Origin: an uncultured Clostridia bacterium
GTDB lineage: Bacteria > Bacillota > Clostridia > UMGS1883
Assembly: GCA_934454525.1 (NCBI GenBank)
Contig: CAKSFM010000001.1
Location: 109,502 to 173,501 of the forward strand
Direction of reading: 5' to 3'
DNA: 64,000 nucleotides
Notes under the pieces: generated by a model
The model's database searches: none
What the model was told of the DNA's origin: nothing
What the model saw: the letters and a program-made list of their open reading frames with translations, nothing else
Translations under genes and position numbers: made by a program
In this document: one piece after another, positions 2,881 through 59,220 of the stretch
How the letters are laid out: each line of letters begins with the position of its first letter
Numbering within the stretch: position 1 is the first letter of the stretch

Positions 2881-3105
2881 CTAAATATAAATTATAACAA
2901 AAATACTGCTGCCGGTCAATCGGCATAATTCACAAATAACAAAGGCAAAATTTGCTGCCATTGTCACCGCTCCCCTTGGGAATAGGGCACGATATATACC
3001 GGACATATCATAATTATGGCACAAAAGCGCATATGTCAGAGTAAAAAGGTGACTATATGCATTGCCTTTTGTATTTCCAAAATTCCCCGATTTTCCCGCA
3101 CCCAT
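2881..3105 (-). pseudogene. Remnant of a toxin-module start: the first 16 codons 'MGAGKSGNFGNTKGNA' are fused to non-coding sequence
   Basis: The N-terminal 16 aa and upstream 5' UTR hairpin are identical to the toxin genes at 4311 and 7244. Downstream of the junction at about 3057 the reading frame is the antisense of a spoIIID-upstream-like sequence. Confidence 0.7.
2976..3060. repeat. Diverged duplicate of the spoIIID upstream region/RBS (compare 7955-8053)
   Basis: 'ttgggaata...aaaagcgcatatgtYagagtRaaaagg...ctatatgc' is shared. The core 3023-3060 matches 8016-8053 at high identity. A microhomology junction 'atgc' is visible at 3057-3060. Confidence 0.7.
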
Positions 3106-3111
3106 TAAGCA

Positions 3112-3146
3112 GTCACCTGCTTCCCGGAATAAAGGAAGCAGGTGAT
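3112..3146 (-). promoter_or_regulatory. 5' UTR hairpin (13-bp perfect stem) whose 3' arm contains the SD-like AGGUGA, 7 nt before the toxin-module AUG (remnant copy)
   Basis: 'gtcacctgcttcc cggaataaa ggaagcaggtga'. The same stem sequence occurs at 4318-4352 with a different loop. Confidence 0.6.
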
Positions 3147-3151
3147 TTGTC

Positions 3152-3694
3152 CTATAATATTCTGCTTGTTCTAGTTACATTCACTTTGTTGGCACCATCG
3201 TCCGACCAGGAATCAACAACCTGTGATATAGGAAATATAGAATTGTAATTATCATGTTCAGATATAGTTATATCTTCGGAAAACCATATGTCTCTTGAAA
3301 ACATTATAATTTTAGTTTCCATCCTTATGATGATCGCCTGATCAAATGCAATTTCAAATTCACCATCATTTATACAAATTGCATCATTTATAATTTCTAC
3401 ATCGTTAATAGTTTCGCCTACATCAAATGTCTCAAATGGTTCTTCGCAATACGGCTTAAAAGTACTATTGCCATCTACCAGTTTACACTTAAAGCCAGCC
3501 ACCTCTTCTTCTGTATCAAAAAAAGGGGTTGTTCTTTGAAGATTGGTAATCTCTACTGATAATTTATCTGTATTGATTCTCAAGTTCCCATATACATTGC
3601 CGAAAATCTTTCCACACTCATATGAAATAAATTTAGATCCTTTTATGTTTTTTAGCATTTTTTCCATATTATTATTTAAAGTTACATATATCAT
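3152..3694 (-). CDS. Hypothetical acidic protein; putative immunity protein for the toxin at 3709-4311
   Basis: The start is 14 nt after the toxin stop, with RBS AAAGGAGTG. 180 aa, acidic, no recognised enzymatic motifs. Confidence 0.45.
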   Translation of the reverse strand: MIYVTLNNNMEKMLKNIKGSKFISYECGKIFGNVYGNLRINTDKLSVEITNLQRTTPFFDTEEEVAGFKCKLVDGNSTFKPYCEEPFETFDVGETINDVEIINDAICINDGEFEIAFDQAIIIRMETKIIMFSRDIWFSEDITISEHDNYNSIFPISQVVDSWSDDGANKVNVTRTSRIL

Positions 3695-3708
3695 TCAATC
3701 GCACTCCT

Positions 3709-4311
3709 TTATTTTATAAAATGGATTTTTTGCGGTTTAATTTTACCAGGTGTTTTAACAGTTATTTCTACCGCCGGACTATTTGGAGTCTTTGTGATTA
3801 CCCTATAAACAATATTCGATTCATCGGAAAATATTGTTTGCACTCCTTTGCCATTTGGTAAAATCCTTTCGATTCCACCTTTGCTGAGTTTTTTGTAAAA
3901 ATCGGCAGAAGATTTTATAGGGTCATTACTTTTAAATACTCTAGTATTTTTTCCCTTTGTTCCAAAATAACCATTTTCCCCAAGATTATATTTCTTAGCA
4001 ACACTTTTAGCATTATCCACCACACTTGAAATCTTTGAAGTTTTCTTAGTTGTCTTAGCGGCATCTACCGCTTTATCTGCCATTTTAGCAAGTTTTGCCG
4101 TGTCTGCAACTTCTCCGGCAAAGGGGATTATTCCCACAGCGTCAAGTCCTGCCGATAGCAAATCGCCCCGCAGCAAATCAACAGGTATTGACGCAAAATC
4201 AGTAAATGTGTCAAGTCCGGGAATTAGCGATGCCGCCGTTAAAAGGTTGCTTAATGCATCTAATGCATTGCCTTTTGTATTCCCAAAATTCCCCGATTTT
4301 CCCGCACCCAT
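3709..4311 (-). CDS. Polymorphic-toxin-like protein: shared N-terminal module (possible pre-toxin domain) plus a unique C-terminal domain of unknown function
   Basis: The N-terminal 85 aa 'MGAGKSGNFGNTKGNALDALSNLLTAASLIPGLDTFTDFASIPVDLLRGDLLSAGLDAVGIIPFAGEVADTAKLAKMADKA' are identical to the genes at 6669-7244 and 5119-5679. The C-terminus '...YRVITKTPNSPAVEITVKTPGKIKPQKIHFIK' is divergent. Confidence 0.6.
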   Translation of the reverse strand: MGAGKSGNFGNTKGNALDALSNLLTAASLIPGLDTFTDFASIPVDLLRGDLLSAGLDAVGIIPFAGEVADTAKLAKMADKAVDAAKTTKKTSKISSVVDNAKSVAKKYNLGENGYFGTKGKNTRVFKSNDPIKSSADFYKKLSKGGIERILPNGKGVQTIFSDESNIVYRVITKTPNSPAVEITVKTPGKIKPQKIHFIK

Positions 4312-4317
4312 TAAGCA

Positions 4318-4352
4318 GTCACCTGCTTCCTGAAATAGAGGAAGCAGGTGAC
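4318..4352 (-). promoter_or_regulatory. 5' UTR hairpin (13-bp perfect stem, 9-nt loop) sequestering the SD (AGGUGA) of the toxin gene at 4311
   Basis: The minus-strand mRNA reads 'GUCACCUGCUUCC-UCUAUUUCA-GGAAGCAGGUGAC-UGCUUA-AUG'. No U-tract follows, so this is not a terminator. Confidence 0.6.
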
Positions 4353-4424
4353 AAAAAATCAGCGCTTGTTATAATTATTCTAAAAATCAGCATAACACGA
4401 TTTAATATATAAAATATCTTCGTA

Positions 4425-5099
4425 TTAAATCCTAATAGTTTTATTAAACACTCCTTCAAATTTATCATCAAGCACAATATCTTTGTGGTAATGACCAAAA
4501 AACCATTTTTTAAAAATAAGTTTATTTTTTATACTCTCAAAAAAATCTGTCAGCTTGTTTTTTTCATATGTTGGAGCAATAGCATTTTGAACAGATGTCG
4601 GCGCACAATGGGTTATCACATAATCGACCTCAAAATTATTCTTTTTAAGGTTCTTTTCCGCATTACTATATTCTTGTTCATTTGGCATTTCAGCACACCA
4701 CCAGTTTTTCCTTTCTATTCTGTACTCTTTATCGTGGGAATCGGCTCCGCCAAAGACGAAGACTTTTTTCCCGTCAATCGTATATGTCTCTCCACGTATT
4801 AAATGGTAAATTCCATCATCAACTTTGTGTGCAGTTCCTCCGCAAAGTTCTACTATCGGAAGAGAATAAAGCATATCAAAATTTTCATGATTACCGTCAA
4901 TAAACAGTGTTGTAAAGTTTTTGTTTTTAAGCCACTTTATCCAATATTTTTCCTCATTGCTGCCGTCCCAAACACCACCAAAATCGCCGCATATAATCAC
5001 ATAATCATTTTTAGTCATTTCTTTTTGCTGCGGAAAATGCTTTGCAGAAAGTTTTTGAATATCAACCGGAATATGTGTATCACCTGTAATATATATCAT
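4425..5099 (-). CDS. Calcineurin-like metallophosphoesterase (MPP superfamily), sitting in the immunity-gene position after the ParB-like toxin module
   Basis: Motifs 'GDTHIP', 'ICGDFGG', 'DGNHEN', 'HCAP' and 'GHYH'. RBS AGGAAGGATGG. The start is 19 nt after the stop of 5119-5679. Confidence 0.7.
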   Translation of the reverse strand: MIYITGDTHIPVDIQKLSAKHFPQQKEMTKNDYVIICGDFGGVWDGSNEEKYWIKWLKNKNFTTLFIDGNHENFDMLYSLPIVELCGGTAHKVDDGIYHLIRGETYTIDGKKVFVFGGADSHDKEYRIERKNWWCAEMPNEQEYSNAEKNLKKNNFEVDYVITHCAPTSVQNAIAPTYEKNKLTDFFESIKNKLIFKKWFFGHYHKDIVLDDKFEGVFNKTIRI

Positions 5100-5118
5100 T
5101 GATAACCATCCTTCCTAT

Positions 5119-5679
5119 TTAATCAAACCAAAGCAAGTCATTAATTGTTTTATATCCTTTATAAGGTAACGAGACCCTTTGAGTTGGAATTTTATCCAAT
5201 CCAAGTTGTTTTGCTGCCCTCAATCTATGATGTCCGTCAACAACATACTTTGTACCTTTATACTCAACATACTTAATAGGTTCAATAATACCATTTTTTA
5301 TGCTTTCCACTAAATTTTTATATTGTTTTTTGCTCAATGTTAGCTTATGAGTTTGTGTTAACTTTGTCGGCGAAATTCTTTTTATACCTTTAGTAAAATC
5401 CGTAGCTTTGTCAGCAGCCTTAGCGGCATCTGCCGCTTTATCTGCCATTTTAGCAAGTTTTGCCGTGTCTGCAACTTCTCCGGCAAAGGGGATTATTCCC
5501 ACAGCGTCAAGTCCTGCCGATAGCAAATCGCCCCGCAGCAAATCAACAGGTATTGACGCAAAATCAGTAAATGTGTCAAGTCCGGGAATTAGCGATGCCG
5601 CCGTTAAAAGGTTGCTTAATGCATCTAATGCATTGCCTTTTGTATTCCCAATCTTGATGAATATTCTAATTGCTCGATT
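5119..5679 (-). CDS. Orphan polymorphic-toxin module lacking the first 15 codons; C-terminal ParB/Srx-like (DGHHR) nuclease-type domain
   Basis: The shared N-module runs from '...GNTKGNALDAL' onward. Nucleotide identity with the other copies ends at 5650. The C-terminus is 'IKYVEYKGTKYVVDGHHRLRAAKQLGLDKIPTQRV'. No ATG sits at the module start, so the true start is unclear (TTG or in-frame). Confidence 0.55.
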   Translation of the reverse strand, partial: NRAIRIFIKIGNTKGNALDALSNLLTAASLIPGLDTFTDFASIPVDLLRGDLLSAGLDAVGIIPFAGEVADTAKLAKMADKAADAAKAADKATDFTKGIKRISPTKLTQTHKLTLSKKQYKNLVESIKNGIIEPIKYVEYKGTKYVVDGHHRLRAAKQLGLDKIPTQRVSLPYKGYKTINDLLWFD

Positions 5680-5713
5680 CTAATTGACGGAATCGAGCAA
5701 TGCATTGTTAATA

Positions 5714-6028
5714 TTAACTTATTTGTATTTTTCCCGCAAATATTTCTTTAGGAAAGTTTAAGTAATTCACCATAAAATAATCATCTTCAGTTATACTTAT
5801 AGGCGGCTCACCAGATATGCTAATCCCCTTGAAAATAAAAGACCAAAACTCCTCATATCCTTCCTCGTCCATATCACAATCAGACTCATCCTCAATATAA
5901 GAATCAAATATTGCCCGAGCCTCGCTTCCATCTTCCCATTTTAATATTAGTTCTTGGTCTTCATAGTTATCAATGTTATTAATAAATGTTCCTATAATTT
6001 TTTCTTCCCTGTCATTCCAAAAATACAT
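5714..6028 (-). CDS. Small acidic protein, putative orphan immunity protein
   Basis: 'MYFWNDREEKIIGTF...DESDCDMDEEGYEEFWSF'. RBS GGAGGAAG. It immediately follows the stop of the toxin C-terminal fragment at 6031-6159. Confidence 0.45.
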   Translation of the reverse strand: MYFWNDREEKIIGTFINNIDNYEDQELILKWEDGSEARAIFDSYIEDESDCDMDEEGYEEFWSFIFKGISISGEPPISITEDDYFMVNYLNFPKEIFAGKIQIS

Positions 6029-6030
6029 TT

Positions 6031-6159
6031 TTACTTCCTCCAATTAATTGGTTTTTCTGGCACAAGATGTGTTCCAGATTTGGAATAATGTATTATCCCA
6101 ACCGTGGTATCATATGATTTTCCCGTCTTTGGGTCAACATATTTTCCTATTATTTTTTT
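6031..6159 (-). pseudogene. C-terminal fragment of a degraded toxin gene (no start codon). Its stop overlaps the RBS of the downstream acidic gene
   Basis: Open frame 'KKIIGKYVDPKTGKSYDTTVGIIHYSKSGTHLVPEKPINWRK*' with no ATG/GTG/TTG start. It is bounded upstream by TAA at 6160-6162. Confidence 0.4.
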
Positions 6160-6200
6160 TTAATTAACAGTTTCTCTGTTTGTGCCAATCTTTCGACCTT

Positions 6201-6267
6201 ATTGAAAATCAATCGATGGTGAAAGCCGCTGCAAAGAACTTTGCTCTTTCCAAATCGAGTGTACATA
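6201..6267 (+). repeat. 67-bp duplicate of an internal spoIIID segment (matches 8102-8168, codons 17-38), 2 mismatches
   Basis: 'attgaaaatcaatcgaYggtgaRagccgctgcaaagaactttgctctttccaaatcgagtgtacata' matches. Confidence 0.85.
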
Positions 6268-6310
6268 CAATTGTAACAAGACAGCAACCTTTTATATAGA
6301 AGTGGCTTCA

Positions 6311-6652
6311 CTAACAAGTTTGCACAGATACAGATGAAGCTTTAATTTCAATTTCAATATATTTCCCGGATAAATCATTAAACACCGTCAGTACTATCTC
6401 ATTTTCATTGTTTGATACCACTTTTGAAATTTCATCACTGTTTATCCGATATGTACTATAATGAAGATTCGTACATTCACTAAATTTTATAACTATATTA
6501 CCAGTTTCCGGCATTTCATCCGTATAACCATCTTGCTGCCAATAGCAAAAATCAACATATAACTTAACAGTTGCCGTTTTTTTATTATAATCAATTTCTT
6601 CCAAAAGACTATCATGCAAGTTGTAATTCTGAATAAATTCTTTTATTGTCAT
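6311..6652 (-). CDS. Hypothetical protein; putative immunity protein for the toxin at 6669-7244
   Basis: Starts 'MTIKEFIQNYNLHD...' at 6652 with RBS GGAGGG, 16 nt after the toxin stop. The ORF-track start at 6718 would overlap the toxin. Confidence 0.45.
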   Translation of the reverse strand: MTIKEFIQNYNLHDSLLEEIDYNKKTATVKLYVDFCYWQQDGYTDEMPETGNIVIKFSECTNLHYSTYRINSDEISKVVSNNENEIVLTVFNDLSGKYIEIEIKASSVSVQTC

Positions 6653-6668
6653 AAAATTATCCCTCCAA

Positions 6669-7244
6669 TTATGGTATGATATGTGACTTTTTAGAGTTTT
6701 TCGGCACTGGGTTTCCAAATTTATCTAAATAGTAATCATGTTTGCCTGTTGAGTTTGGATTTAAAATATGATAATGATCCTTTCCTCCATATCCTCCCAT
6801 GCTTCTTTTCCCTTTGTGAAACCTTATTGTATAACCGTTCTTTTTGAACATCCTTGATGTTGTATTCTTCTTCATTGCTGCCGGAGTTATTTCTTCCCAA
6901 CCGTTTTCCACTAGTTTCGATGGAGTTTTGTGTAATTTCAGTATTTTAACCCCCGATTTAGTAGCATCCGTAGCTTTGTCAGCAGCCTTAGCGGCATCTG
7001 CCGCTTTATCTGCCATTTTAGCAAGTTTTGCCGTGTCTGCAACTTCTCCGGCAAAGGGGATTATTCCCACAGCGTCAAGTCCTGCCGATAGCAAATCGCC
7101 CCGCAGCAAATCAACAGGTATTGACGCAAAATCAGTAAATGTGTCAAGTCCGGGAATTAGCGATGCCGCCGTTAAAAGGTTGCTTAATGCATCTAATGCA
7201 TTGCCTTTTGTATTCCCAAAATTCCCCGATTTTCCCGCACCCAT
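6669..7244 (-). CDS. Polymorphic-toxin-like protein: shared N-module plus a C-terminal HNH-like (H-Y-H...N...H) candidate nuclease domain
   Basis: The N-terminal 100 aa are identical to the other copies. The C-terminus is 'GGKDHYHILNPNSTGKHDYYLDKFGNPV'. The ATG overlaps the stop of the upstream ORF (TAATG), giving translational coupling. No UTR hairpin is present here. Confidence 0.55.
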   Translation of the reverse strand: MGAGKSGNFGNTKGNALDALSNLLTAASLIPGLDTFTDFASIPVDLLRGDLLSAGLDAVGIIPFAGEVADTAKLAKMADKAADAAKAADKATDATKSGVKILKLHKTPSKLVENGWEEITPAAMKKNTTSRMFKKNGYTIRFHKGKRSMGGYGGKDHYHILNPNSTGKHDYYLDKFGNPVPKNSKKSHIIP

Positions 7245-7807
7245 TAAGCAGTCACCTGCTTCCTGGACTTTGAAATTTCACTTTCAAAATGCACAATATT
7301 GATGCCCATATCCTTATATGGCTTAAAAATACTTTCCGGTGCACCGCCATAAACTACTATAGTTTCAGGCGATAGCCTTTGCACCATACGGGCGAGACCT
7401 ATTTCAAAAAAGATTTTATCCTCTTTGTGTTTAATACATCCGTGTGTCCCTACCGCGACAGTTTTATTTTCTTCTACCGCGTCAAAACAGAATGAGAACG
7501 TCCTCTCATCCCCAAATCTCACATTGGGGATAATTTCAACTCCGTTATTTTGAAGCCAGACCGATAAAGCTCTGCCTCTATATGTATTCCACATTTGCAT
7601 GCAAAGCGGCATATTGCGATACAGGCTGAAATCCGGCGAAATTATGCCCTTGAACTTTTTGAGTTTCGCAAGGTACTGTTTGGGATTATGCCATAGGCAT
7701 AACCTCATCTTTTTCAAACTGAAAAATATATGTAAACGTTGCATAGTTTTTTTCATTTCCCACATAAGTGTATAAATGTGGCAAAATATTGTCTTTTTCA
7801 GCGTCAA
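7244..7807 (-). CDS. Hypothetical protein translationally coupled to the first toxin gene; the true start is probably internal (about MPLCMQMW/MQMW)
   Basis: The C-terminal 110 aa 'NGVEIIPNVRFGDERTFSFCFDAVEENKTVAVGTHGC...IVVYGGAPESIFKPYKDMGINIVHFE' look protein-like. The N-terminal 70 aa look like a non-coding translation. Confidence 0.35.
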   Translation of the reverse strand: MTLKKTIFCHIYTLMWEMKKTMQRLHIFFSLKKMRLCLWHNPKQYLAKLKKFKGIISPDFSLYRNMPLCMQMWNTYRGRALSVWLQNNGVEIIPNVRFGDERTFSFCFDAVEENKTVAVGTHGCIKHKEDKIFFEIGLARMVQRLSPETIVVYGGAPESIFKPYKDMGINIVHFESEISKSRKQVTA

Positions 7808-8053
7808 GCAAGTGGGCCGTTATATCAACAACGGCAGTACACAGGCTTGATTTACCCGAGCCGTTTTTACCGATTTTGGAAATGAGTAATAAAACAAGGT
7901 TCTTTAAAGATTTTCAGGAATTTTACCTGTAAGGGTTTTAGCGCTTCGGCTGTTTTGGGAATAATAGCGCCCGATAACTTTTGCAATAATGCCGCCCTTT
8001 ATCATATTCGGGCATAAAAGCGCATATGTTAGAGTGAAAAGGGGGCTATATGC

Positions 8054-8323
8054 GTGAAAGACTATATCGAACAGCGCGCCTTAATGCTGGCAGATTACAT
8101 AATTGAAAATCAATCGACGGTGAGAGCCGCTGCAAAGAACTTTGCTCTTTCCAAATCGAGTGTACATAAAGATGTTACGGACAGACTGCTTAAAATTGAC
8201 CCGACACTTGCGCGAACCGTTAAAGCCGTGCTTGACAAAAACAAGGCGGAGCGGCACATCCGCGGCGGAATGGCAACAAAACGCAAGTACGAGGAAAAGA
8301 AGCGCCGATACGCTAATATCTGA
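8054..8323 (+). CDS. spoIIID: Stage III sporulation protein D (SpoIIID), mother-cell transcription factor
   Basis: '(M)KDYIEQRALMLADYIIENQSTVRAAAKNFALSKSSVHKDVTDRL...IRGGMATKRKYE' closely matches B. subtilis SpoIIID. GTG start with RBS AAAGGGGG. Confidence 0.9.
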   Translation: MKDYIEQRALMLADYIIENQSTVRAAAKNFALSKSSVHKDVTDRLLKIDPTLARTVKAVLDKNKAERHIRGGMATKRKYEEKKRRYANI

Positions 8324-8981
8324 GAATTGCAATCGCCGCGGCGCACATCAAAAGAGTGAACACAGCCGCGCCGTACAGTGCAAGCTTCGGTTTTCCTCCA
8401 TCGCCGCTCGGGCGCATTTCAGCCATGCCGGTTTTCCGCAGAATCTTCACAAACGGCTTGTAAAGCATGACAGCAAGCGAAGAATTTATCGTGCATTTAA
8501 TCAGATTGAACGGCAGAAAAACCGGAAGCAGCATTTTCACAATATCGCCGCGCGGAATTTCCATGTAAAGAGGCGTGAGCGCATAGTTCCACACAAGCAT
8601 GGTGGCGGCAGATGCCGCCGTTCCGAGTGCGAGTCCGGCAATTGCCGATGGCAGGCGCCTGTTTCTTCCGTATACTGCCGATGCAACACACGCAAACGCA
8701 CAGCTTGAAATTACATTCATAACAAAACCTATTAATCCCGTTTCGCTGATTGTGAGCATTTCCGCAAGTGAGACAACTGCCGAGATTAAAAACGCGGTCA
8801 TAGGACCGTACAAAAATCCTCCTATGACAATAATAATATCCTTCGGGTCATACTTTAAAAAGGATATTATACTTATCGGAACAGCCTTTCCGATGATCAC
8901 TGCCGCATATGCAAGCGCGCAGAGCAGCGCCGTGCATGTTATTTTCTTTGTTTTGTTCATAGCCGCAAACATTCCTTTCAT
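8313..8981 (-). CDS. ribU: ECF-transporter substrate-specific (S) component, riboflavin type (RibU), inferred from the upstream FMN riboswitch
   Basis: Protein with about 5-6 TM helices and the small hydrophobic S-component architecture. It lies directly downstream of the RFN element and overlaps the 3' end of spoIIID convergently by 11 bp. The start could instead be ATG 8972 or 8960. Confidence 0.7.
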   Translation of the reverse strand: MKGMFAAMNKTKKITCTALLCALAYAAVIIGKAVPISIISFLKYDPKDIIIVIGGFLYGPMTAFLISAVVSLAEMLTISETGLIGFVMNVISSCAFACVASAVYGRNRRLPSAIAGLALGTAASAATMLVWNYALTPLYMEIPRGDIVKMLLPVFLPFNLIKCTINSSLAVMLYKPFVKILRKTGMAEMRPSGDGGKPKLALYGAAVFTLLMCAAAIAILRY

Positions 8982-9148
8982 ATAAAAAATGCGCCCCTTA
9001 TAAATCGGGGCGCATTTTTATTGCATTTTAAAATCTCCTGTCATCCGGACTTTAACCGTCGGCTGCGGAGTTTCACCGCATCGGCCTCAAATGAGGTTAG
9101 TGGGCTTTGACCACCGGTAGGGAATTTCACCCTGCCCCGAAGATATAT
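8982..9148 (-). ncRNA. FMN riboswitch (RFN element) with an intrinsic terminator (8982-9019) as expression platform
   Basis: The minus strand reads 'aucuucggggcagggugaaauucccuaccgguggu...gaggccgaugcggugaaacuccgcagccgacgguuaaaguccggaugacaggagau'. This matches the B. subtilis ribD leader consensus. A hairpin 'aaaaaaugcgcccc/ggggcgcauuuuuu' plus U-tract sits just before the ribU start. Confidence 0.85.
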
Positions 9149-13661: not shown

Positions 13662-13744
13662 TTTTTTCGGTTCGCTGTGTTAATATGGCATTGTTACCCT
13701 GCGGTGTGCGCAGTTACGGATTTATTTTAACCAACACTTCTACT

Positions 13745-13845
13745 ACGGGAGATCATATAGAGCTGTGGCGTGTAAGCCCTTACCTACGGGTCAGAGGGAA
13801 ACCCAGGAGCAGCTCCGAGATCACCCACCTGCTCACGCAGGTTTA
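13745..13845 (+). ncRNA. Candidate small structured RNA, SRP-RNA (4.5S-like) domain-IV-like motif. Boundaries are approximate
   Basis: 'ccuuaccuacgggucagagggaaacccaggagcagcuccgag' resembles the SRP RNA helix-8 consensus 'uuaccaggucagguccggaaggaagcagcc' (GUCAG...GNRA loop...AGGAGCAGC). The region is intergenic, the ORF at 13658-13846 is implausible, and I could not draw a convincing fold by hand. Confidence 0.3.
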
Positions 13846-13907
13846 GAATATTCCGAAATAAACGGCACTGCGGGGTTTTTATTTTATAATTTAAGGAAGG
13901 ATTTCAA

Positions 13908-14870
13908 ATGAAAAAAGGAATTAGAGCTTTTATACTTGCGGCGGCGCTTTCAGTTTCGCTTCCGATTTCTTCACTTGCAGCGTTTAAGGATATGCCCTCG
14001 GGCGCGGACGGTGCCTGCCTTCAGCGCGCCGTTGACAACAATTTGCTTACCGGCTTTGAGGATGAAACAATCCGCCCGGCAGACGCGATTACACGCGCCC
14101 AGATGGCGGCAATCACAGTGCGCGCTTTCGGAGCAACAAGGGCAGCCGACATTGCAAATTACACGGACGTTTCTTCTTCCGACTGGTTTTATGATTCCAT
14201 GGCAAAGGCAGTTGCAATGGAGGCGTTCCAGGGCAGCGGCAACAAGCTGAACCCCACGGACAATATATCACGCCAGGAAGCCATGATTGTGCTCTCAAGA
14301 GTTTTTGCCCTGCCGGAGTCTGACGGTGCGCTTGATAAATATACCGACGCATCTCTTGTTGCGGACTGGGCAAAGGACGGCGTTTCCAAAATTGCTGGCG
14401 GCGGGTATCTTCCGGAAAACGACTCGGCGCTTCGCCCGACAGATAAGATGACGCGCCTTGAATTTGCGCAGATTATGGATAAGCTGGTAAGTATGTACAT
14501 AACGGAAAGCGGCGAATATACGGCGGATAAGCTTTCGGACGGAAACATTCTTGTTAAAGCGTCCGATGTGTCATTTAAAGGCATGGAGGAAAGCACCTCC
14601 GTTATTATCGGCGATGGTGTGGACGGAAAAACAAGCTTTACCGACTGCAAGCCAAGCCGCGTTATTATCCGCGGCGGTACGTGCATTATAAACTCCGGCA
14701 CGTACAAAGCGGTAAATGCAATCGGTTACGGAACAAAGCTCGTGCTGATGAAACATCCTTCGGAGCTTATTATCCCCGGCAGCACAGCTGTTTTTGACGC
14801 TGAGAGAGGTAAGGGAGAGATAATTTTAACGCTTCCGAGCCTTGAAGTACCTGACAAAAAGAGCAATTGA
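13908..14870 (+). CDS. S-layer-homology (SLH) domain cell-surface protein with signal peptide
   Basis: Signal peptide 'MKKGIRAFILAAALSVSLPISSLAA', followed by three SLH-like repeats ('FKDMP...', 'YTDVSSSDWF...', 'YTDASLVADWAKDGV...'). Confidence 0.75.
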   Translation: MKKGIRAFILAAALSVSLPISSLAAFKDMPSGADGACLQRAVDNNLLTGFEDETIRPADAITRAQMAAITVRAFGATRAADIANYTDVSSSDWFYDSMAKAVAMEAFQGSGNKLNPTDNISRQEAMIVLSRVFALPESDGALDKYTDASLVADWAKDGVSKIAGGGYLPENDSALRPTDKMTRLEFAQIMDKLVSMYITESGEYTADKLSDGNILVKASDVSFKGMEESTSVIIGDGVDGKTSFTDCKPSRVIIRGGTCIINSGTYKAVNAIGYGTKLVLMKHPSELIIPGSTAVFDAERGKGEIILTLPSLEVPDKKSN

Positions 14871-14889: not shown

Positions 14890-14918
14890 TTGACAAAGAA
14901 TATTTTCTCTGTTATAAT
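14890..14918 (+). promoter_or_regulatory. Consensus sigma-A promoter TTGACA-17-TATAAT
   Basis: 'ttgaca' at 14890-14895 and 'tataat' at 14913-14918. Confidence 0.7.
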
Positions 14919-14924
14919 ACAACT

Positions 14925-15213
14925 AATTTAATAACCAAACGCAATGAAGGGAAGGAGTAAATACCCTGAACCGGTTATAGAGAGAGGCGGACGGTGGAAG
15001 CGCCTTATCGGAAGGTATTGAAGTAGTCCCGGAGCGGCTGACCGAACAGTGCACGGTGCGCTAAGTAGACTCAGACGGAGAAGTTTCCGCCGTATAAAGG
15101 GATTTCGGCATCGATTTATTTCCGTGCTGTATGAGGTGCAAGGATAGTTCCCTTGCATGAAGTTAGGTGGTAACACGAGTCATTCGTCCTAATACGGACG
15201 GATGACTTTTTTT
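14925..15213 (+). promoter_or_regulatory. T-box-like riboswitch leader (Stem I with AGAGAGA bulge and a distal loop containing GGUGGAA, T-box sequence, antiterminator/terminator)
   Basis: The T-box-like sequence 'aaguuaggugguaacacgag' at 15160-15179 sits upstream of the terminator. The antiterminator can form as 'uagg'-[UGGUAAC bulge]-'acga...ucgu'-'ccua'. The competing terminator is 15179-15213. The specifier codon could not be assigned by hand. Confidence 0.5.
15179..15213 (+). terminator. Intrinsic terminator of the leader (11-bp stem, U7)
   Basis: 'gtcattcgtcc taatac ggacggatgac ttttttt'. Confidence 0.8.
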
Positions 15214-15227
15214 GTTAGGCATAGCAG

Positions 15228-15378
15228 ACCCGAACACATGCGCCCAATGCTTGTTAAATTTCCGCTCAGCCGTTCTTTCGGGATTTGCAAGGCTGACGTA
15301 TATCAAGACCGACAACACAGAAAAAGACGATTTTCAGGCTTTTTGAGCGGGTTCGGATACTGACATATCTGCCTACGG
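15228..15378. repeat. Modular repeat, modules A (15228-15292), B (15293-15351) and C (15352-15378)
   Basis: A matches 17214-17275 (57 bp identical). B matches 287-344. C ('ttcggatactgacatatctgcctacgg') matches 17176-17201 and partly 589-612. Confidence 0.8.
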
Positions 15379-15465
15379 AAAACCGTCCGCAATAAGACCG
15401 CTTATTACCCGACTCTTTGTACACTCCGCGGAACACGCCTTATTTTATATTTTTCGGGAGGATTT

Positions 15466-17121
15466 ATGATGGAACTGTTAAACAACTATTTACCGAGGAT
15501 TGATTTTGACGATTACGATGATTTTAAGCAAAATTTCTCAATAAACGTACCTGAGCAATTTGACTTTGCGCGCGATATTGTTGACGGCTGGGCAAAGCTT
15601 GAACCCGGCAAGCGCGCCTTGCTTTATACAAATGACAGCGGCTGTACGCGCGAATTCACCTTTAGGGAGATATCGGAGCTTTCCAAGCGCGCAGCATCGT
15701 ATTTTATCAGTTTAGGCATAAAAAAGGGTGACAGAGTGTTCACGCTTCTGCGCAGGAGATGGGAATATTGGATTTGCGCGGTTGCGCTGCACCGCATTGG
15801 AGCTGTTGTTGTTCCCGGTTCGGTTCAGCTCACCGAGAAGGACATTCTCTACAGAATTAACGCGGCGCAGGCGAAGCTTCTTCTCGCTGTTAATGACAGC
15901 TTTGTTACGGAACAGATTAAGGATTTATTGCAGAAATGCGATTCTCTCCGCCATATTCTGATTGCCGGTGATTCCGCAGCGGATGGTTTTAAATATTTCA
16001 ACAGCGAATTTATAAAGCATGAACCGTACAGCGAACGCCCCGAGGCAGCCAACAGTGACGAAATGGTAATCTACTTCACCTCCGGCACATCAGGCATGCC
16101 TAAAATGGCAATTCATAACCGCACATATCCGCTCGGGCACATTGTGACGGCGAAATATATGCAATGCGTTCAGAACAACGGACTGCATATCACTCAGGCA
16201 GACAGCGGCTGGGCAAAGTTCGGCTGGGGCAACATATACGGACAGTGGATTTGCGGCAGCGCGGTTCTGGCATATGACCCGCTGCGGTTCAATGCTGCAC
16301 ACTTTCTCGAAACAACGGAAAAATACAAACCGACCTCAATGTGTATTCCTCCGACAATGTACCGCTTTCTTCTTCGTGACGGACTTGAGAAAAAACATAT
16401 TGCATCGGTTAAATGGTTTTCAACGGCAGGCGAGCCGCTTTCAGGCGAGGTAAACAGCCGTTTTCACGAAATCACGGGGCATTATATTCACGAGGGTTTC
16501 GGACAAAGCGAGGGTACCCCGATAACCTGCGGATTTCCCTGGATTGAGGTGCGTCCGTCATCAATGGGCAAACCCTCTCCCCTGTACCGCACGGCGATTA
16601 TCCGTCCGGACGGTTCTCCCTGCGGCTGTGGCGAGGAGGGCGAGGTTGTTATATTCACGGACGGCGGACAGCTCGGACTTCTTGACTGCTACTTTGCGGA
16701 CGGAGAAAAAATATACCCGGTTAAGGATGGAATATATCACACCGGCGACACTGCGTACTGTGACAAAGACGGATATTACTGGTATGTCGGCAGAACGGAC
16801 GATGTGATAAAATCCTCAGGCTATCGGATAGGACCGTTTGAAATTGAAAGCGTACTCAATTCGCACCCTGCCATCCGCGAAAGTGCGATTATCGGTCGGC
16901 CGGATGATATGCGCGGTCAGATCGTATGCGCAGTTGTTGCGCTCTCAAGCGGTTATGAACCGTCAGACGAGCTTACGCGTGAACTTAAGGACTATGTAAA
17001 GCACAAAACCGCACCTTACAAATATCCCCGTATTATAAAGTATATTGACGCACTGCCGAAAACAACCTCGGGGAAAATAATCCGAAATGAGGTAAAAAAG
17101 ATATACAGTGCAGTAATTTAA
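15466..17121 (+). CDS. AMP-forming acyl-CoA synthetase, medium-chain (ACSM)-like
   Basis: AMP-binding motif 'YFTSGTSGMPKM', 'GRTDDVIKSSGYRIGPFEIE', and an N-terminus 'FDFARDIVDGWAKLEPGKRALLY...GDRV' typical of the ACSM family. RBS GGGAGG. Confidence 0.8.
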   Translation: MMELLNNYLPRIDFDDYDDFKQNFSINVPEQFDFARDIVDGWAKLEPGKRALLYTNDSGCTREFTFREISELSKRAASYFISLGIKKGDRVFTLLRRRWEYWICAVALHRIGAVVVPGSVQLTEKDILYRINAAQAKLLLAVNDSFVTEQIKDLLQKCDSLRHILIAGDSAADGFKYFNSEFIKHEPYSERPEAANSDEMVIYFTSGTSGMPKMAIHNRTYPLGHIVTAKYMQCVQNNGLHITQADSGWAKFGWGNIYGQWICGSAVLAYDPLRFNAAHFLETTEKYKPTSMCIPPTMYRFLLRDGLEKKHIASVKWFSTAGEPLSGEVNSRFHEITGHYIHEGFGQSEGTPITCGFPWIEVRPSSMGKPSPLYRTAIIRPDGSPCGCGEEGEVVIFTDGGQLGLLDCYFADGEKIYPVKDGIYHTGDTAYCDKDGYYWYVGRTDDVIKSSGYRIGPFEIESVLNSHPAIRESAIIGRPDDMRGQIVCAVVALSSGYEPSDELTRELKDYVKHKTAPYKYPRIIKYIDALPKTTSGKIIRNEVKKIYSAVI

Positions 17122-17175
17122 GATATTTTGTTCATTTTTGCGCTGTAATGTCGGAAAAGGCTTCAAAAAAACGAG

Positions 17176-17275
17176 TTCGGATACAGACATACCTGCCTAG
17201 GCATAAGCGACCCGAACGCCATGCGCCCAATGCTTGTTAAATTTCCGCTCAGCCGTTCTTTCGGGATTTGCAAGG
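17176..17275. repeat. Modular repeat, modules C' (17176-17201) and A' (17214-17275). This is the same family as 15228-15378 but in a different module order
   Basis: 'gttcggatacagacatacctgcctagg' followed by 'gaacgccatgcgcccaatgcttgttaaatttccgctcagccgttctttcgggatttgcaagg'. Confidence 0.8.
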
Positions 17276-17472
17276 CGGCAGCCTTGCTTCATCCTGCAAG
17301 AACACCTGAACAAAAATTTTCCGGTGCATTGAGTCTGCGAGTTCAAAAAGAGCAAATTTTTTGCAAAAAAAGGCAAAAGCGCAGTTAATAGTTTGTCTAT
17401 TAACGAGCATTTTAACGCATTATTGCGACAAATTTGCCTTTTATGACGCTGTGGGTTCAGGTCGCTTATGCC
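17200..17472. repeat. 18-bp inverted repeats ('ggcataagcgacccgaac' at 17200-17217, its reverse complement at 17455-17472, 1 mismatch) bracketing about 237 bp. MITE-like
   Basis: rc(17455-17472) is 'ggcataagcgacctgaac'. Confidence 0.7.
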
Positions 17473-17493
17473 TATTTTTTTATTTCATTATTC

Positions 17494-17522
17494 TTGACTA
17501 TCCCTAAAATTTCATATATAAT
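17494..17522 (+). promoter_or_regulatory. Sigma-A promoter TTGACT-17-TATAAT for nifJ
   Basis: Boxes at 17494-17499 and 17517-17522. RBS AAAGGAGG before ATG 17572. Confidence 0.65.
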
Positions 17523-21100: not shown

Positions 21101-21316
21101 GGGGATGTTAAAAAACTCCGGAACGCAAGAAAAGAAGAAAAAGCAGATATTACAGGCAGCATAGCTATTGTAATTAGCTTTTATTAAAGGTAGAAAAATC
21201 AAAAATTTGATTTTTCAAAGAATCACTTCTTTTCTTGCTATCAACAAACTTCGCCGCTCGGCGTACCTATGTACGCCGTCGGGTAACCCAAAGCTAACGC
21301 TTTGGCTCAGTTTGTT
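21101..21316 (+). repeat. About 200-bp intergenic element (copy 1). It begins 7 nt after the nifJ stop. An inverted copy lies at 54812-55015
   Basis: Conserved blocks 'ggggatgttaaaaaRctccggaacgcaagaaaagRagaaaaagca' and 'tagaaaaatcaaaaatttgatttttcaaagaatc...ttttcttgctatcaacaaacttcgccgctcggcgtacctatgtacgccg'. Confidence 0.85.
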
Positions 21317-21356: not shown

Positions 21357-21399
21357 GCTGTTTAAAAAGTCAATTGGCTTTTTAAACAGCCCCTTTTTA
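21357..21399 (+). terminator. Intrinsic terminator (13-bp stem) downstream of nifJ and the repeat
   Basis: 'gctgtttaaaaag tcaattgg ctttttaaacagc ccctttttat'. Confidence 0.75.
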
Positions 21400-54811: not shown

Positions 54812-55015
54812 TGCGAACAAACTTCGCCGCTCGGCGTACATAGGTACGCCGAGCGGCGAAGTTTGTTGATAGCAAGAAAAGGGGGATTCTTTGAAAAATC
54901 AAATTTTTGATTTTTCTACTTTAATGAATCCAAACTGCAAGAATTATATTTCATGTAAATATATGCTTTTTCTCCTTTTCTTGCGTTCCGGAGCTTTTTA
55001 ACATCCCCGTCGTTT
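54812..55015 (-). repeat. About 200-bp intergenic element (copy 2, inverted relative to copy 1). It begins at the first base after the upp stop and contains a perfect 24-bp-stem palindrome (54816-54867)
   Basis: rc(54812-55015) aligns with 21101-21316 in two blocks of about 50 and about 90 bp. The palindrome is 'aacaaacttcgccgctcggcgtac-atag-gtacgccgagcggcgaagtttgtt'. A second, AT-rich hairpin is 'gaaaaatcaa attt ttgatttttc'. Confidence 0.85.

Positions 55016-59142: not shown

Positions 59143-59220
<78 letters not shown>

Follow-up and report, generated by a model that had tools for sequence, protein, structure and literature searches.

A stretch of 64,000 nucleotides from an uncultured Clostridia bacterium (GenBank assembly GCA_934454525.1, contig CAKSFM010000001.1, positions 109,502 to 173,501), referred to below in its whole length as the window, carries a T-box leader upstream of a gene for an AMP-forming short/medium-chain acyl-CoA synthetase, hereafter the ligase. 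The leader is interpreted as a tRNA-Val-specific, transcription-attenuating T-box that regulates the ligase, and the ligase as an enzyme that would activate isobutyrate, presumably for reductive carboxylation to valine; taken together, this interpretation is considered probable. The leader RNA itself is an ordinary class I transcriptional T-box, and it is the acyl-CoA ligase that appears to be a new member of the regulon. No link between a T-box and an acyl-CoA synthetase was found in the literature searched (PMC2494555 and PMC3766115 with supplements, PMC7778990), although an earlier mention may exist, and no ligase or T-box regulation was found there to have been assigned to the isobutyrate-to-valine route.

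The T-box was called with the Rfam covariance model RF00230 (gathering score 93 bits), which the leader matches on the forward strand over the whole model (1-219) with 95.4 bits and an E-value of 1.2e-19; the coordinates of its elements are collected in Table 1. The promoter in front of it is the top promoter-like site within the 11 kb scanned and is kept in the close relatives L084 and L087 (loci other than the window are designated by L numbers). Transcription would start at about position 14925, giving a leader of approximately 290 nt. In the RF00230 alignment the specifier loop carries AGUA ... GAA, and the conserved T-box sequence reads AGGUGGUAACACG, with the bulge UGGUAAC at 15168-15174, unchanged in the orthologues; the UGGU that begins this bulge (15168-15171) is invariant across the orthologous leaders. 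The 5' arm of the terminator and the 3' half of the antiterminator have the stretch 15177-15189 in common, and the two structures are mutually exclusive. Much of this architecture had been proposed in an initial annotation of the window, namely a perfect consensus promoter at 14890-14918, a leader of about 290 nt with a Stem-I-like AG bulge and distal loop, and a canonical antiterminator with a 7-nt UGGUAAC bulge, all of which are borne out, as well as a strong competing terminator at 15179-15213, which falls within a few bases of the one found. The string AGAGAGAGG singled out in that annotation lies at 14979-14987. The identification as a T-box, put forward there with moderate confidence and left to an Rfam covariance check, is upheld by the full-length match above the gathering score.

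In an alignment of 27 leaders (A1), on which the Rfam-derived Stem I and antiterminator were imposed, 92.2% of the cells are paired, as against 34-46% when the partners are slid; 14 pairs show compensatory changes, and none of 500 shuffles reaches the observed values. A Stem I alignment that adds the leaders of more distant ligases (A4) is 91% paired, with compensatory changes in 18 of its 21 pairs, and the slid-partner controls over both Stem I tests give 34-50%. The antiterminator pairs, on the other hand, are all invariant in the 26 distinct orthologous leaders and, because they never vary, provide no covariation signal in either direction. RNAalifold applied across the 27 leaders recovers the terminator, with exchanges between G-C, G-U and A-U pairs. 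Single-sequence minimum-free-energy folding of the window leader also recovered the terminator, but not Stem I, and for this reason the structure of Stem I was taken from the covariance model and the comparative alignments. A custom Stem I covariance model (R1) scores 104 bits on the window leader.

The specifier, which had been left unassigned in the initial annotation, can now be assigned as GUA, a codon for valine. As in TBDB (PMC7778990), the specifier was read at nucleotides 2-4 of the specifier bulge, counted from its 3' end. On its 3' side the loop has GAA-GUA-G (15020-15026), in which the conserved purine G15026 is followed by the closing helix UCCC. The same codon is present in every orthologous leader read except those of L025 and L026, where GAA-GUC-A offers the synonymous valine codon GUC. 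The loop is one base longer in five genome loci (L011, L015, L024, L029 and L030) and in four metagenome loci (L089-L091 and L095), reading GAA-G-GUA-G, GAA-C-GUA-G or GAA-U-GUA-G, with the codon still anchored before the closing purine, and a -1 frame would read Ser, Gly or Arg inconsistently among the orthologous leaders; together, these observations remove the ambiguity of frame. No specifier for an amino acid other than valine was found before members of the window ligase family. The UGGU of the bulge would pair with a tRNA 3' end ACCA, which implies A as the discriminator base, as would be expected of a bacterial tRNA-Val.

The pairing of leader and ligase is widely conserved. When one genome was scanned for each species, relatives of the ligase came up at 80 loci. 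In 26 of the 29 genome loci whose ligases are 62-70% identical to that of the window (L002-L030), including that of the cultured Desulforamulus aeronauticus DSM 10349 (L002), a T-box core lies 62-118 nt before the ligase start; the locus with the 93% identical ligase (L001) offers just 149 nt of contig upstream of the gene, and a T-box is absent in all 50 loci with ligases of about 50% identity. Orthologous leaders score 68-110 bits on RF00230, all over the full length of the model: of the 13 leaders submitted to Rfam, eight reach or exceed the gathering score and five remain at 68-91 bits. Look-ups of identical proteins and a scan of metagenomes brought a further 15 leader-ligase pairs (L084-L095, L108, L110 and L112), some with ligases only about 53% identical and from high-GC organisms. 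The pair is thereby found in more than 40 loci, with 57-145 nt between T-box core and start codon; in L087, which also holds a repeat insertion, the spacing is 222 nt. The Stem I covariance model, run over all fetched loci (1.66 Mb), matches just these leaders and T-boxes in L138 and L163.

In the ligase tree the T-box-bearing enzymes form one clade, and the identical protein occurs in the same arrangement in independent gut metagenomes. Apart from valS and folC, the neighbours of the T-box-bearing ligases are unrelated and lineage-specific (rnpA-yidC-jag, GGDEF proteins, FAD proteins, LRR/MORN proteins, monogalactosyldiacylglycerol synthase and ClpB). Since the leader is kept before an orthologous ligase in more than 40 loci, the ligase is its ancestral and usual target, and is, on this comparative record, the conserved target of the T-box. 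Control of an acyl-CoA synthetase by a T-box, recognized from the outset as unusual, is in this way supported by both the covariance model and the conserved pairs, while the suggestion that a repeat had displaced an original target gene is refuted, as orthologous T-boxes directly precede the same ligase with no repeat in between. A T-box of a different kind was noted in L138 (4787-4892, forward strand), about 120 nt past a sister-clade ligase, with an apparent Trp (UGG) specifier; the contig ends before its target.

In 11 loci, each from a different species, the order is T-box, ligase, valS, folC. The gene that follows the ligase in ten loci encodes a valine-tRNA ligase (NF004349, 1284 bits) and is itself followed by folC; the gap between ligase and valS is 8-16 nt in nine of the ten, with just a ribosome-binding site in it, and in L017 the two open reading frames share 20 nt. 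The ligase-valS arrangement is also seen in L008, up to the end of its contig and again with an overlapping junction. The valS-linked loci constitute one nested subclade of the ligase tree, which indicates that the T-box-ligase module is older than its fusion to valS. This fusion provides an independent confirmation of valine specificity and implies that the ligase is co-regulated with valine charging in these organisms. The valine specificity of the T-box is apparent from sequence comparison, in the specifier, its reading in the orthologous leaders and the linkage to valS. No valS gene was found in the 64-kb window.

The ligase has the AMP-binding (8e-58) and AMP-binding_C (5.5e-22) domains of Pfam. 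Its open reading frame starts 251 nt past the U-run of the terminator and is preceded by the ribosome-binding site GGGAGG at 15456-15461; as the orthologues begin with MELL, the true start is probably at 15469. The closest homologue of known structure is MacsMa (3ETC), which aligns end to end (E 7e-169), and a match to ACSM2A (1e-87) agrees with the ACSM-type, AMP-forming synthetase named in the initial annotation. Public annotations of these ligases read 'AMP-binding protein' or 'acetyl-CoA synthetase'; the two acetate-CoA ligase models tried, TIGR02188 and NF003313, both failed, with 243.5 bits against a cut-off of 725 and 350.5 against 729. The top NCBIfam model is MbcS (NF047394), on which the enzyme obtains 370.3 bits with an equivalog cut-off at 850, and it is consequently regarded as a relative of MbcS and not as a member of that family.

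AMP-forming ligases run in the direction from acid to CoA ester, and induction at valine shortage would therefore fit assimilation and not fermentation. A valine-specific switch on an enzyme of this class leads to the prediction that the substrate is isobutyrate, the acid that corresponds to valine. The idea that the enzyme might activate an amino-acid-derived acid, already raised in the initial annotation, fits the valine specifier found throughout, the valS operon of 11 species and the activation of 2-methylbutyrate or isobutyrate by its closest characterized homologues, namely MacsMa, which prefers 2-methylbutyrate (PMC10455477), and MbcS, which acts selectively on these two acids (PMC10026030). 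Some of the ligases under valine T-boxes are extended at the C-terminus, by a NUDIX domain in proteins of about 683-689 residues (L024:6001-8070, L089:4035-6104 and L091:3097-5148) and by a GNAT acetyltransferase domain in proteins of 743 residues (L110 and L112:4977-7208).

By analogy with other T-boxes, the leader would be expected to respond to tRNA-Val. RNA polymerase would start at the consensus promoter and transcribe the leader, in which Stem I would offer GUA for pairing with the UAC anticodon of tRNA-Val. With an uncharged tRNA, the free 3' ACCA would pair with the UGGU of the bulge and stabilize the antiterminator, allowing transcription of the ligase; with a charged tRNA, the terminator would form and transcription would stop. 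The ligase may then turn isobutyrate into isobutyryl-CoA, which would be reductively carboxylated to 2-oxoisovalerate by a 2-oxoacid:ferredoxin oxidoreductase and transaminated to valine, as in the classical rumen route. Labelling studies of rumen bacteria have established that valine is formed from isobutyrate (Allison and Peel 1971, as cited in PMC7356843). Shortage of valine would in this manner induce the salvage of isobutyrate, which is plentiful in the gut.

A parallel system was found for isoleucine. The T-box of L163 (92.5 bits, full model) carries AUC as its specifier, with a purine after it, and UGGU in its bulge, and it precedes a gene with helix-turn-helix (HTH) and cupin domains and a second ligase, which scores 480 bits on the MbcS model and is 46% identical to the window enzyme. 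Five homologues of this second ligase were looked up, and the four with upstream sequence (L168-L171) all show the same arrangement, again with an AUC specifier next to a purine, with a UGGU bulge and with T-box scores of 78.6-110.6 bits. The order of isoleucine T-box, HTH-cupin gene and MbcS-like ligase is accordingly present in five of five loci with upstream sequence, and looks like a second, undescribed pairing of T-box and ligase. Two ligase subfamilies, each tied to one branched-chain amino acid, are what would be expected if each activates the cognate branched acid. Beside the isoleucine T-box ligase of L170 there is a divergent cluster resembling the genes of 2-oxoisovalerate:ferredoxin oxidoreductase (VOR).

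Ligases of the sister clade, which have no T-box, lie in 12 loci in apparent operons with VorB-type VOR genes. The order is a P-loop Fe-S carrier-like gene, the VorB-type alpha, beta and gamma subunits, an HTH-cupin gene and the ligase, all on one strand and with small gaps. At the level of gene order, this synteny shows a connection of the ligase family with branched 2-oxoacid:ferredoxin oxidoreductases. In about 50 further loci the HTH-cupin gene alone is directly upstream of the ligase, and the regulator that it encodes may sense the acid or the acyl-CoA.

Several observations weigh against the proposal that a valine T-box governs isobutyrate activation for valine synthesis. The score of the window leader is just 2.4 bits over the gathering score, and the three loci without a T-box (L018, L022 and L027) are nested inside the T-box-bearing clade, a position that points to loss of the T-box. 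No tRNA-Val gene on which the discriminator base could be checked was found in the window or in the 31 loci scanned. VOR genes were found neither in the window nor within 5-6 kb of any T-box-bearing ligase, and none of the T-box-bearing loci has an oxidoreductase or aminotransferase gene in the transcription unit of the ligase. The VOR synteny of the sister clade cannot, by itself, separate amino-acid synthesis from the supply of fatty-acid primers. As for the enzyme, its MbcS score is well below the equivalog cut-off, the preference of the best-characterized relatives is for 2-methylbutyrate, an acid related to isoleucine (MbcS taking isobutyrate too), and the NUDIX and GNAT fusions of T-box-regulated orthologues are unexplained by the model.

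The main rival concerns the fate of the product: isobutyryl-CoA could mainly prime the synthesis of iso-branched fatty acids, as with MbcS of Staphylococcus aureus, so that isobutyrate would be scavenged for membrane lipids, and not for valine, when valine, the normal source of this primer, is scarce. The family whose model ranks first for the window enzyme acts in branched-chain fatty-acid synthesis (PMC10026030, PMC11167679). VOR and the ligase could supply one and the same acyl-CoA by alternative routes, and the VOR synteny is compatible with such a role; in L085 and L086 FabH is encoded about 4 kb upstream of the ligase, and two genes past the ligase an acyl-ACP thioesterase is encoded in L069 (Pfam) and in its cluster-mates L066 and L077. 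However, the T-box targets described in comparative studies serve aminoacyl-tRNA supply, as synthetases or in biosynthesis and transport (PMC2494555, PMC3766115), the co-transcription with valS in 11 species fits valine supply better, and the ligase transcription unit contains no fatty-acid synthesis gene at any T-box locus. A primarily lipid-directed role is consequently judged unlikely, and the balance tips, by a modest amount, towards valine synthesis as the purpose of the ligase.

The window leader can be compared with several known systems. It resembles the class I valS T-boxes of Firmicutes (RF00230) in Stem I, in the Stem II/III region, in the opposition of antiterminator and terminator and in its valine codon, and in 11 relatives a leader of the window type does control valS, which stands second in the operon; it differs in that its first, and usually only, gene encodes an acyl-CoA synthetase and not a tRNA synthetase, an ilv enzyme or a transporter. 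The T-box-run branched-chain amino-acid operons of Bacillales and Clostridia (PMC2494555) would follow the same logic if the valine proposal is right, although here an acid would be salvaged by activation and reductive carboxylation instead of the acetolactate pathway, with T-box control confined to the activation enzyme. MacsMa of Methanosarcina acetivorans shares with the window ligase the segment SGW-x4-W-G-x4-GQW, all three Trp of which are kept, and the motif FGQ(T/S)E (FGQTE in MacsMa, FGQSE in the ligase), but is archaeal, has no T-box and prefers 2-methylbutyrate, whereas the valine T-box of the window predicts isobutyrate. In the acyl pocket of MacsMa, Gly takes the place of the pocket Trp of Acs, and another Trp (Trp259) lines the pocket. 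MbcS, the best-scoring curated family, supplies fatty-acid synthesis, and the MbcS literature found makes no mention of control by a T-box. Finally, the rumen route from isobutyrate to valine through VOR, known from labelling, gives the activation of isobutyrate a physiological role in Clostridia of gut and rumen.

A specifier codon names, independently and in the sequence itself, the amino acid that a gene serves; in the present case it ties a poorly annotated ligase family to valine in more than 40 loci and a sister family to isoleucine in five. These enzymes are candidates for the step that activates isobutyrate or 2-methylbutyrate in rumen and gut anaerobes, which has been genetically unassigned since the 1960s-70s; the need of these anaerobes for branched volatile fatty acids bears on fibre digestion and ruminant nutrition. 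The pairing widens the range of T-box targets and represents a natural valine-responsive switch joined to an acid-activating enzyme. A more general proposal, for and against which the chances seem evenly divided, is that branched-chain amino-acid T-boxes define an unrecognized regulon in Firmicutes of gut, rumen and sediment, in which valine T-boxes control medium-chain acyl-CoA synthetase-like isobutyrate ligases and isoleucine T-boxes MbcS-like 2-methylbutyrate ligases. On this view the ligases would supply the activation step that is missing from the classical pathway from branched volatile fatty acids to valine and isoleucine, and tRNA charging would be the switch for salvage.

The interval of 251 nt between terminator and ligase had been described as a gap of about 250 bp occupied in part by an A-B-C repeat insertion, and this description holds. 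One copy of a miniature inverted-repeat transposable element (MITE)-like repeat is inserted directly after the terminator U-run, with imperfect inverted repeats at its ends. Its segment 15216-15293 matches 17198-17276 at 94%, with a 57-nt core at 100%, while 15293-15359 matches 287-352 at 95.5% and 15348-15388 matches 17172-17212 at 80%. The repeats belong to a small modular intergenic family (287-357, 15216-15388 and 17172-17474) with MITE-like terminal inverted repeats TAGGCATAAGCGACCCGAAC / GTTCAGGTCGCTTATGCCTA, of which the copy at 287-357 is partial. The two relatives with about 93% identity, L001 and L087, carry a shorter version of the insertion, the contig of L001 beginning inside the repeat; the second copy of the window is absent from L001, where the spacer between the ligase and the next gene is about 123 nt. 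L084, with an 88% identical ligase and the same upstream synteny (CmpB, RuvX, DUF1292 and SLH protein), has the same promoter, GUA T-box and terminator, followed by about 95 nt to the start codon with no repeat. On the strength of this comparison, the 250-nt gap is the result of a recent insertion of a MITE-like mobile element.

It might be asked whether this insertion, by bringing in a new promoter or an RNA-processing site, uncoupled the ligase from the T-box, so that the leader is a relic here and functional in relatives. A mobile repeat of about 160 nt does sit between the terminator and the ribosome-binding site, and relatives have just 57-145 nt from T-box core to start codon. Nevertheless, no promoter-like or terminator-like site is predicted on the forward strand at 15216-15465 and the insertion is not unusually structured (z = -0.3), for which reasons the coupling of T-box and ligase is probably intact. 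All elements from the promoter through Stem I, specifier and antiterminator to the terminator are intact, with near-identical counterparts in L084 and L087, L087 has its own repeat insertion at the same site, and the arrangement with the identical protein recurs in independent gut metagenomes. Uncoupling is accordingly regarded as improbable.

The gene after the ligase encodes a pyruvate:ferredoxin oxidoreductase (PFOR), and a single ligase-PFOR unit was considered in which acetate or another small acid would be activated and acetyl-CoA carboxylated to pyruvate, the carbon precursor of valine. The two genes are neighbours on one strand, no terminator is predicted between them, and the PFOR is bona fide by its model score (Table 1). 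However, PFOR has a conserved promoter of its own (11/12 matches), the adjacency is confined to the window, to L081 (a copy with the identical protein) and to the relatives L001 and L087 of about 93% identity, with a xanthine/uracil permease in the place of PFOR in L084, the 88% relative, and the scores of the ligase on the two acetate-CoA ligase models fall far short of the cut-offs given above. On account of the promoter and of the narrow adjacency, an operon for reductive carboxylation was dropped as very improbable, and PFOR was treated as an independent neighbour; as part of the original case for the T-box it is uninformative. PFOR is probably transcribed independently of the ligase, although read-through from the ligase is conceivable. 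That the T-box originally belonged to another gene, valS or one since lost, and came to stand beside the ligase by an accident of rearrangement is hardly credible: valS follows the ligase in the same operon at 11 loci, so that the leader also controls it there, but these loci form a single nested subclade, most lineages, those that branch deepest in the clade included, have kept the pair without valS, the pair reaches ligases just 53% identical, valS is not in the window, and the alignment of the leaders opposes independent recent captures.

Table 1. Features of the window and of related loci. Positions without a locus number refer to the window.
Feature	Position	Strand	Description
Promoter	14890-14918	+	sigma-70-type, TTGACA-17-TATAAT, 12/12 matches, extended-10 TG
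T-box leader	14935-15194	+	full-length RF00230 match
Stem I	14941-15035	+	basal helix with GA/K-turn motif, specifier loop, AG bulge, distal loop
AG bulge	14976-14983	+	unpaired UAUAGAGA; aligns with model AGAGA element
Distal loop GACGGUGGAAG	14990-15000	+	aligns with model GGUGNNA element
Specifier codon GUA (valine)	15023-15025	+	RF00230 alignment and TBDB rule
T-box core AGUUAGGUGGUAACACGAG	15161-15179	+	RF00230 alignment
Antiterminator	15164-15191	+	UAGG / 7-nt bulge UGGUAAC / ACGAG-UCA-UUCGU / CCUA
Intrinsic terminator	15177-15215	+	13-bp hairpin 15177-15208, then U-run to 15215
MITE-like insertion, ~160 nt	15216-15377	+	interval between terminator and ribosome-binding site; ends TAGGCATAGCAGACCCGAAC ... 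GTTCGG..TGCCTA; boundaries approximate
AMP-forming short/medium-chain acyl-CoA synthetase, 551 aa	15466-17121	+	Pfam AMP-binding and AMP-binding_C
Second MITE-like copy	17198-17474	+	ligase-PFOR spacer; 20-nt terminal inverted repeats, 95% complementary
PFOR promoter-like site	17494-17522	+	TTGACT-17-TATAAT, 11/12 matches, kept in L001
PFOR, 1173 aa	17572-21093	+	TIGR02176, 1828 bits against equivalog cut-off 911
Terminator after PFOR	21357-21390
Isoleucine T-box loci	L163:1610-4189; L168:2092-4668; L169:2093-4707; L170:2139-4641; L171:2069-4659	- (L163)
Sister-clade VOR loci (~50% identity)	L035, L044, L048, L052, L079, L103, L109, L118, L121, L133, L146, L159

Other features of the window were noted in passing. 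The sole tRNA gene (59143-59217, forward strand) has the anticodon CAU and an acceptor stem that starts with CGCGGGG, and looks like an initiator tRNA-Met. A flavin mononucleotide (FMN) riboswitch (110 bits) at 9029-9148 on the reverse strand is upstream of the gene for the S component of an energy-coupling factor (ECF) transporter (8313-8981, reverse strand), presumably a riboflavin transporter, which is a standard arrangement. A 6S RNA gene (RF00013, 101.8 bits) lies at 13693-13880 on the forward strand, just 5' of the gene for an SLH-domain protein (13908-14870). The region 3013-8178 contains long direct repeats, with one of 294 nt present three times (at 4039, 5404 and 6972, 87-98% identity), one of 89 nt three times and one of 82 nt twice, among small reverse-strand genes that include those for DUF4417, ParB_N and metallophosphoesterase proteins; it looks like an array of duplicated cassettes of genes, or else an island of the mobile or defence type. 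Lastly, a GC-rich sequence of 36 nt, AACAAACTTCGCCGCTCGGCGTAC..., occurs in two intergenic copies of 94% identity, 33.6 kb apart, at 21243-21278 and 54816-54851, the first of them between the stop codon of PFOR and its terminator.

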